Shown: positions 28,167-29,490 of the stretch, in pieces
Position numbering within the stretch: the stretch's first letter is position 1
How the letters are laid out: every line of letters starts with the position of its first letter
Assembly (NCBI GenBank): GCA_913054235.1
Contig: CAJXJI010000003.1
Span: forward strand, 1 to 40,971
Length of the DNA stretch: 40,971 bases
Direction of reading: 5' to 3'
From: an uncultured bacterium
GTDB taxonomy: Bacteria > Patescibacteriota > Minisyncoccia > Minisyncoccales > UBA10102
Notes under the pieces: generated by a model
Told to the model about the DNA's origin: nothing
Databases searched by the model: none
What the model saw: only the letters and a program-made list of their open reading frames with translations
Program-made: the position numbers and the translations under genes

Positions 28167-28676
28167 TTACTTTTTCGTTATCACCATGGTTAATCCCCGA
28201 GGCTCCAGTTTCATATCGCGTTCTGTTCGAATGGGAATTAAGATAGTGAGTTGTTCTGTAAACTTTAAAATCTTTTCTCTTGCATGATCAAGCAATGCTT
28301 TCTGTCGTCCTCTGAGCCGAAGATTGATTCTGATATTGTCCCCACGCTTTAAAAACTTTTCCGCTTGCTTCACTCTTGTTTCAAGGTCGTGGTCTGAAAT
28401 ATTGAAGCTGAGGCGAATTTCTTTTAAATCTCCCCCTGTATGCTTTTTTGCCTCCCTCTCTTTCTTTCCTTGCGAATAGAGATACTTTCCGTAGTCTGCA
28501 ATTCTTGTTACGGGAGGATCTACTTTTTCAGTTACTTGAATGAGATCAAGACCAGCTGCTTCTGCTCGAGCGAGAGCCTCAGCTAAAGGAACTACGCCTG
28601 CTTGAGTTCCTGTTTCGTCAATTAAACGAACTTCAGTTGCTCGTATTTGTTTGTTTGTGTATATTTGTTTTGCCAA
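28167..28676 (-). CDS. infC: Translation initiation factor IF-3 (non-ATG start)
   Basis: N.QIRA.EVRLID, PPV.RI.DYGKY.Y, KEIR, HD, RGRQ; starts TTG 28676 or in-frame ATT 28682, consistent with known IF3 autoregulation. Confidence 0.96.
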   Translation of the reverse strand: MAKQIYTNKQIRATEVRLIDETGTQAGVVPLAEALARAEAAGLDLIQVTEKVDPPVTRIADYGKYLYSQGKKEREAKKHTGGDLKEIRLSFNISDHDLETRVKQAEKFLKRGDNIRINLRLRGRQKALLDHAREKILKFTEQLTILIPIRTERDMKLEPRGLTMVITKK

Positions 28677-28702
28677 TGTAATTTGTGTAACTCAAAAATA
28701 TG

Positions 28703-29051
28703 TGGAGGTGGAGGGAATGACCCCTCGTCTAGAAGATATCCTATTAATACTTCTTCAGGCATAGCCTCATTCATGCAAGAAGAAGAGTTAAAATGGGGCG
28801 AAATCTCTTTTCTTTTTGATTCTGTTTATGTTGCAGAGTTTCCGAATCCGAAACAATGCCCTTCTCGATAATTGACACCCAGTTCTGCCTATCGAGATCA
28901 GCAGGAGGATGGCTATAGGTTTATGCTACAGCAAGAGCCCTTTGAGGGGCAAAGATGTTGGCATTTATGGTGCCCCAGGTTTTTTTGTGAGTATCCTGGA
29001 ACCTCAGCCTGCATATTAATGTTCTTTCCTCTATCGAAGCAATTCACCCCC
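28703..29051 (-). ncRNA. ssrA: tmRNA
   Basis: 5' GGGGGTGAATTGCTTCGA; acceptor stem GGGGGUG/CACCUCC with G3-U; T-stem GAGGG/CCCUC; tag ORF present; adjacent to smpB; CCA not encoded. Confidence 0.93.
28921..28962 (-). other. tmRNA tag reading frame (A)ANIFAPQRALAVA
   Basis: ATAAAT then resume codon GCC at 28962; hydrophobic/Ala C-terminus; TAA at 28923-28921. Confidence 0.85.
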
Positions 29052-29490
29052 GTTTTAGGGCCCGTTCCATTTCTTGCTGGGCCTCTCTTTTGCGCAGGAG
29101 CTGCCGCTTATCTCCTTTTCTCTTTCCTCTGGCAATGCCAAAGGCAAGCTTAATCTTGGCCTTGCTAGTATACACCTTCAAGGGCACAAAAGTCAATCCT
29201 TCCTGCTTTATCCTTCCATATAGCGAATGGAGCTCCACTTTTTGCAAGAGAAGCTTTCTTGCACGGTCAGGATCATAGTTTAAAGGAGCATTTTTCGGTT
29301 GGTAAGGAGGAATAGTAGCTCCCAGCAAAAAAAGCTCTTTGCCCCTGAAGCTCACAAAGGATCCAGCTAGTTGAATCTTTCCCTGGCGAATTGCTTTTAC
29401 CTCTTGCCCTGTGAGCACCAAACCCGCCTCAATAGTCTCAAGGATTTGATAATCATGGTGTGCTTTTCTGTTTTCAGCTAAAGTTGGCAT
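29044..29490 (-). CDS. smpB: SsrA-binding protein SmpB
   Basis: NRKAHHDY, EAGLVLTGQEVKAIR, RKLLL, GLT.VPL, GK...DKR. Confidence 0.98.
   Translation of the reverse strand: MPTLAENRKAHHDYQILETIEAGLVLTGQEVKAIRQGKIQLAGSFVSFRGKELFLLGATIPPYQPKNAPLNYDPDRARKLLLQKVELHSLYGRIKQEGLTFVPLKVYTSKAKIKLAFGIARGKRKGDKRQLLRKREAQQEMERALKRG
29167..29196 (-). promoter_or_regulatory. Putative internal promoter in smpB driving ssrA
   Basis: TTGACT (29196-29191), 18 nt, TATACT (29172-29167). Confidence 0.45.

Follow-up and report, generated by a model that had tools for sequence, protein, structure and literature searches.

Where does a protein-coding gene end when the RNA gene behind it has already begun, and what becomes of its message when that RNA is cut out? 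This question is raised by the smpB-ssrA junction in a window of 40,971 nucleotides, by which we mean the whole stretch of DNA that was analysed, taken from a genome of 477,870 bases in 31 contigs that is 98.2% complete. In the layout usual in many bacteria, such as Escherichia coli, smpB precedes ssrA on the same strand and the ssrA promoter is intergenic. In the window, by contrast, there is no spacer between the two genes, a candidate promoter lies in smpB codons, and infC follows within 23 nt. The features of the junction are the following.

29044..29490, minus strand: smpB coding sequence, 148 aa, with its TGA stop at 29046-29044 (ORF listing and Pfam SmpB match).
28700..29051, minus strand: ssrA (tmRNA), Rfam RF00023, full model 1-374, with model position 1 at G29051.
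29044..29051, minus strand: smpB/ssrA overlap of 8 nt, in which the last two sense codons of smpB (in part) and the stop are tmRNA nt 1-8 (GGGGGUGA).
28704..28710, minus strand: acceptor stem, 3' strand (CACCUCC), paired with 29051-29045 and including G3:U70.
28921..28962, minus strand: tag reading frame, GCC to GCA TAA, encoding ANIFAPQRALAVA and a stop; its resume codon is placed by the Rfam alignment, unconfirmed by ARAGORN.
28167..28676, minus strand: infC (IF3), ORF with Pfam IF3_N and IF3_C, starting 23 nt past the tmRNA match.

The smpB product matches Pfam PF01668 with 171 bits (cut-off 27, E 1.8e-50) over profile positions 2-142 of 143, which is its full length. The 3' end of the gene reads AAA CGG GGG TGA ATT GCT TCG on the minus strand, and the protein ends in ALKRG. 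TGA is a genuine stop in the window's organism, since RF2 is present in a profile search of the genome (424.9 bits, cut-off 370; RF1 is also encoded, with 404.1 bits against a cut-off of 400) and the window's long reading frames are unbroken under table 11. With tmRNA +1 at 29051 on the same strand, the TGA at 29046-29044 is tmRNA nt 6-8 (U6-G7-A8). A sequence-only reading of the window had placed the smpB stop inside the tmRNA 5' end with an overlap of 8 nt at 29044-29051, and the ORF coordinates together with the start of the Rfam match confirm it. Its corollary that no terminator can lie between smpB and ssrA is borne out as well by the zero spacer at the junction, so any smpB transcript must run into ssrA.

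The identity of the RNA and the position of its 5' end carry the whole argument. The RF00023 covariance model, which the sequence-only reading had named as the means of fixing this end, places tmRNA at 29051..28700 with 90.7 bits (gathering threshold 47, E 4e-34) over the whole model. Despite this score ARAGORN called 0 tRNA and 0 tmRNA on the window; the T-loop of this tmRNA is one base short in the Rfam alignment. The pairing of GGGGGUG (29051-29045) with CACCUCC (28710-28704), which had been claimed from the letters, is found in 7 of 7 positions with G3:U70, and the tag peptide written down at the same time, ANIFAPQRALAVA before a stop, is reproduced by the Rfam-aligned resume codon; the tag frame has a resume codon, a stop and a hydrophobic C-terminal end. 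For comparison we collected a same-order sample of 61 genomes in 26 family codes, 56 of which have a tmRNA above cut-off and together give 57 loci. Seven acceptor pairs out of seven and G3:U70 occur in 57/57 of these tmRNAs, and the +1 position is thereby fixed by the geometry of alanine identity, beyond the alignment alone; the G3:U70 pair and the 5' acceptor strand are required for alanine charging of tmRNA. The discriminator base is A28703. After the acceptor stem the genome reads ACAT (28703-28700), so CCA would be added post-transcriptionally and a CCA-adding step would be needed, the mature tmRNA probably spanning 29051..28703 plus the added CCA; within the order CCA is genome-encoded in only 11/57 tmRNAs. 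One relative (G026, contig C4) holds a second full-length tmRNA (L050, 85.7 bits) with neither smpB nor infC adjoining it, which could have come from contamination, from a mobile element or by duplication.

Downstream of ssrA, infC starts with TTG, the first ATG/GTG/TTG in its frame, and rpmI and rplT follow on the same strand, each 1 nt from the preceding gene. infC is found downstream of ssrA on the same strand in 56/57 loci of the order, so transcripts that cross ssrA may also feed infC-rpmI-rplT. From this gene order, tmRNA looks like a part of an smpB-ssrA-infC-rpmI-rplT transcription unit.

Regarding how common the overlap is, three collections were compared. Within the order, smpB lies directly upstream of ssrA on the same strand in 56/57 loci, and 27 of these 56 junctions overlap, by 8 nt in 19 loci, by 18 nt in four, and by 11, 12, 30 and 78 nt in one each; the other 29 are separated by 0-8 nt (18 loci) or by 13-267 nt (11 loci). 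The second collection consists of named species-representative contigs, those with the closest SmpB relatives being labelled Candidatus Nealsonbacteria, Paceibacterota/Pacebacteria, Wildermuthbacteria, Parcubacteria group and similar, which places the window's lineage among the Parcubacteria of Patescibacteria. For these contigs we used a home-made locator of the tmRNA 5' end, which recovers 54/57 known starts and 0 wrong ones when T-loops of 6-8 nt are allowed, and 22/57 with a T-loop fixed at 7 nt. It placed a single +1 in 74 of 80 loci, and 69 new loci were left after 5 duplicates were removed. In this sample of named Parcubacteria 29/69 junctions overlap, 24 of them at -8, while 13/69 have a gap of 0-8 nt and 27/69 a larger one. 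In the rest of the phylum, a sample that excludes three low-scoring tmRNA loci (G095, G119, G207) and two partial second matches (G075:C1, G099:C17), only 1/129 loci overlaps (-12). Of the remainder, 7 have a gap of 0-8 nt, 52 of 9-350 nt and 5 lie further away, smpB is on the opposite strand in 3, and in 61 it is absent from the fetched flank. In three genomes of the same class but from outside the order, the gaps measure 19, 39 and 40 nt. Even within the window's genus the state varies, with -8 in four genomes and a 91-nt gap in one (G004). With the distance from smpB stop to ssrA compared across the phylum in this way, the overlap first described in the window is not a one-off (27/56 and 29/69 in two samples); it is a frequent state of one order. 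In two relatives (L039 of G021, and L345) the smpB frame extends into tmRNA by 78 and 71 nt, which lengthens SmpB by about 25 residues, as either a real extension or an assembly error.

The only related report that we found is that of Hudson, Lau and Williams (2014, PMC4131195), in the portion of the paper that we used; our literature search found no report of an smpB-ssrA overlap in Patescibacteria. These authors describe the tmRNA gene as the most frequent neighbour of smpB, and an overlap of the two genes in Carsonella ruddii, the observation of which they credit to Mao et al. 2009. They argue that tmRNA maturation there should yield a non-stop smpB mRNA, a substrate of its own product. In their account the Carsonella overlap is an anomaly of a degenerate symbiont, present in half of the strains with variable intrusion and loss of the SmpB tail, and 'found nowhere else' in a survey of 2031 genome projects (PMC4131195). 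The two cases are alike in that the smpB coding sequence enters ssrA on the same strand and its stop lies downstream of tmRNA +1. They differ in that SmpB in the window is full length and the register is fixed at -8, with the stop at U6G7A8, in that an overlap occurs in 27/56 and 29/69 Parcubacteria loci, and in the conserved candidate promoter inside smpB. The feedback idea is therefore not new, being already in print for Carsonella (PMC4131195). What is new with respect to the text of Hudson et al. (2014) is the wide occurrence in Parcubacteria at a fixed -8 register, together with the candidate promoter in smpB codons.

This promoter lies as follows.

29167..29196, minus strand: candidate sigma70-like ssrA promoter, TTGACT (29196-29191), an 18-nt spacer and TATACT (29172-29167), from a consensus scan and comparison.

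It is written over smpB codons 99-109 (G-L-T-F-V-P-L-K-V-Y-T), and 115 nt separate it from tmRNA +1. A consensus scan of the single window gives 2 promoter-like sites against 3.2 expected, i.e. no excess over shuffles. Across the order, 49 matches of the motif fall in the 50-nt bin from -150 to -101 (counted from tmRNA +1), and the other bins, up to 1 kb upstream, hold 1-12 each. TTGACN and TATANT occur together in 53/57 ssrA-linked smpB genes of the order and in 34/60 linked ones elsewhere in the phylum (ssrA within 350 nt), versus 1/63 unlinked ones, a set that includes the best-scoring 40 of more than 50 without a fetched locus; the lone exception comes from a genome without a detected tmRNA. 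Pooled, the counts are 87/117 linked and 1/63 unlinked, with a Fisher p of 5e-24, a value that the relatedness of the genomes makes too strong. Codon choice was compared in the same stretch. The Leu codon of GLT is TTG in 54/55 genes of the order, versus 15/52 for a control, the Leu of VPL five codons on. The Tyr codon is TAT in 54/56, and the codon after it is ANT in 55/56 (ACT 35, AAT 10, AGT 7, ATT 3) though the residue varies (T, N, S, I). The conservation of the hexamers exceeds what the SmpB protein motif alone explains. Taken together, this is strong sequence evidence for a putative ssrA promoter inside smpB, and we found no literature report of a promoter within that gene. Such a conserved internal promoter should make pre-tmRNA independently, so the tmRNA supply would not be tied to smpB mRNA. 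On this point the sequence-only reading, according to which the SmpB:tmRNA stoichiometry would be set by genome architecture alone, is contradicted by the candidate promoter (87/117 linked, 1/63 unlinked).

RNase P, the route by which the tmRNA 5' end had been supposed to arise, is available in the form of both its RNA (RF00010, 129.3 bits, cut-off 100) and its protein (Ribonuclease_P, 76.2 bits). A cut at G29051 would leave a message ending in AAA C-3' with no stop and with K146 as its last complete codon. Given the overlap and the genes for RNase P, RF1, RF2, an ArfB-like protein, ClpP and FtsH, a non-stop smpB mRNA after processing is soundly expected. Truncated SmpB(1-146) would probably be a normal SmpB, since many non-overlapping orthologues end at aligned residue 146, where their tblastn matches to the query stop. 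The ArfB-like gene is a fragment of 100 aa with GGQ and a basic tail, cut by a contig end (L061 1471-1773, genome contig C8). It matches positions 72-137 of 140 of the ArfB model with 48.7 bits, below the cut-off, as expected of an incomplete gene. A Clp/AAA-type ATPase frame of 477 aa adjoins it. ClpP and FtsH are encoded, while searches of the 98.2%-complete assembly found neither ClpX (zinc-finger domain, TIGR00382 model) nor Lon, which does not by itself prove their absence.

The overlap is neither stable on the tree nor confined to smpB. On a 59-row SmpB tree the overlap state needs at least 15 changes, compared with 19.5 +/- 2.1 for shuffled labels (9/300 shuffles need 15 or fewer), on a topology that is poorly resolved, with 6/56 inner branches starred. 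The offsets of the overlaps in the order are congruent only with -8 or -18 modulo 3, which are the early-stop frames in tmRNA, and the third frame is never used; this usage is as expected if selection acts against long SmpB extensions. In the window's genome, moreover, 12 frames of at least 120 aa end between -10 and +17 nt from a same-strand tRNA, ten of them at 0-17 nt before it, and two protein-coding frames overlap a tRNA.

Genome contig C9, same strand: ftsH/tRNA-Ile(tat) overlap of 10 nt, tRNA L193 at 156-231 and ftsH at 222-2063.
Genome contig C17, same strand: 142-aa frame/tRNA-Ala(cgc) overlap of 10 nt, tRNA L192 at 208-279 and the frame at 270-698.

FtsH has 613 aa and scores 774.5 bits, and its TAG stop is tRNA U8-A9-G10; the TAG stop of the 142-aa frame, for which the family match is only sub-threshold, is likewise U8-A9-G10. 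With ftsH and this frame both overlapping tRNAs, the overlap of a coding gene with a tRNA or tmRNA can be regarded as a general feature of this compact genome. The window's coding genes, for their part, are spaced by 1 nt. The part of Hudson et al. on such junctions (PMC4131195, Table 4) lists FtsW/RodA overlapping tRNA-Ile in Helicobacter and calls overlaps of this kind very rare, about 1 mRNA in 15000. The orientation there is the same, with the 3' end of a coding sequence inside an RNA gene, and RNase P should likewise give a non-stop mRNA. Against that rarity, three cases (smpB, ftsH and the 142-aa frame) are found in the 478-kb genome of the window.

How, then, should the junction be explained? 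We favour, as rather likely though far from assured, tolerated genome compaction with an incidental output of non-stop messages. In the compacted smpB-ssrA-infC module of Parcubacteria, smpB lacks a stop of its own and takes its TGA from the acceptor region of tmRNA, U6-G7-A8. Two transcripts would arise from it: an smpB mRNA from a promoter upstream of smpB, unable to terminate before ssrA, and a pre-tmRNA from the candidate promoter in smpB codons 99-109, which would carry the 3' end of smpB as a leader of some 109 nt. Both would be cut at G29051 by RNase P. The cut would strip the smpB stop, and SmpB with its natural end would come only from uncleaved mRNA, whereas cleaved smpB messages would be non-stop substrates, either tagged by tmRNA-SmpB or released untagged by ArfB. 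Purifying selection would limit the length of SmpB extensions, and any negative feedback on SmpB would be incidental rather than a tuned stoichiometry device. In this scheme co-transcription, the cleavage site, the non-stop fate and the tagging are predictions drawn from the sequence, and the degradation of SmpB and a competition between ribosome and RNA folding are presumed in the same way. The overlap fits tolerance better than a tuned circuit because its state flips often and the frames giving the shortest extensions dominate. Given lability, frame choice, tRNA overlaps and the internal promoter, feedback may act but is unnecessary to explain the architecture, which is why we favour tolerance. 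Still, the -8 state is the commonest single one by far, across many families, and so it could be favoured rather than merely tolerated.

The modal position of -8 in two samples (19/56 and 24/69) and the frequency of the overlap are also what a selected autoregulatory loop would lead one to expect. In such a loop, SmpB made from cleaved mRNA would be tagged and degraded when rescue capacity is high and released by ArfB when it is low, with SmpB homeostasis as the result. Untagged SmpB(1-146) is plausibly active, in view of the orthologues that end at aligned residue 146, and an ArfB-like fragment, FtsH and ClpP are encoded. There are also precedents in print, in the parts of these papers that we used, namely the Carsonella feedback idea (PMC4131195) and the non-stop regulation of arfA (PMC10107115). 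In E. coli, RNase III makes the arfA mRNA non-stop and the product is tagged by tmRNA-SmpB (PMC4131195, PMC10107115). The resemblance is that an endonuclease strips the stop codon of a ribosome-rescue gene, so that its output depends on trans-translation activity. However, for arfA the cut is made by RNase III at a hairpin, and the backup switch has been shown experimentally, whereas in the window the cut is a putative one by RNase P, in a gene of the primary rescue system. A selected loop would also have to accommodate an overlap state that is labile on the SmpB tree, close relatives that lack the overlap (the 91-nt gap of G004, and 29/56 loci of the order), unrelated genes that overlap tRNAs likewise in the same genome, an internal promoter that would uncouple tmRNA from smpB mRNA, and an assembly in which ClpX and Lon were not found. 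We therefore hold it to be doubtful. The bolder version is an adaptive homeostat throughout the order, in which RNase P makes smpB messages non-stop, tmRNA-SmpB destroys new SmpB while rescue capacity is ample, ArfB releases active SmpB(1-146) when that capacity is short, and the internal promoter supplies tmRNA independently; this we consider unlikely.

At the other extreme, the overlap might have no consequence of any kind, if smpB were translated before the 3' strand of the acceptor were made and the cleaved 5' fragment were degraded by 3' exonucleases before a ribosome could arrive at its end, in which case hardly any non-stop SmpB would be made. The acceptor stem indeed cannot form without nt 28710-28704, which lie about 340 nt past the smpB stop, so that the first rounds of translation must precede cleavage; the trait is, in addition, labile and shared with tRNA junctions. 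But bacterial mRNAs are normally translated many times, and we judge a junction free of all consequence to be quite improbable.

There remains the RNA itself. In six marine metatranscriptome runs, roughly a quarter of the words sampled from a 1301-nt stretch are present, a share that corresponds to about the length of the tmRNA, and contigs over the locus were obtained in four runs.

28703-29043: RNA contig of run X14, depth 203.
28709-29039: RNA contig of run X15, depth 60.
28811-29021: RNA contig of run X16, depth 105.
28701-29043: RNA contig of run X17, depth 11.

In three of these four runs the end of the contig is joined straight to adapter sequence. Molecules of tmRNA length from the window's organism thus occur in RNA libraries. 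The contigs begin at 29043, 29043, 29039 and 29021, at least 8 nt short of the predicted +1 at 29051, and, being assemblies that stop there, they do not prove the 5' end of tmRNA; cDNA libraries commonly lack an RNA's first bases. None of the four runs has a contig over infC or most of smpB, which, for assemblies, says nothing on co-transcripts; one 151-nt contig of depth 2 lies inside smpB, on 29114-29264, in run X16. That there is no true overlap, the mature tmRNA starting at about 29043 just past the TGA, is extremely improbable even with the contigs of two runs beginning at 29043 and one of them joined directly to adapter, since such an RNA would lose its whole 5' acceptor strand and the G3:U70 pair kept in 57/57 relatives, the contigs of the remaining pair of runs reach only to 29039 and 29021, and the first bases are those that cDNA libraries usually lose.

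The window belongs to a large lineage, free-living or episymbiotic, in which smpB and ssrA commonly overlap and SmpB has its full length; the only published survey that we found has such an overlap in Carsonella and in no other organism. The -8 register can serve as an annotation rule, and the locus will be mis-called by gene callers and tmRNA finders that do not allow overlaps, and by ARAGORN used on its own. The candidate promoter embedded in conserved SmpB codons would be a clean example of dual coding. If the homeostat were true, a ribosome-rescue system would for the first time be found to gauge its capacity by means of its own message. If RNase P strips the stop codon, non-stop messages would be routine for SmpB, FtsH and probably others, and such a routine supply, if true, would go some way to account for the retention of trans-translation in genomes below 0.5 Mb.
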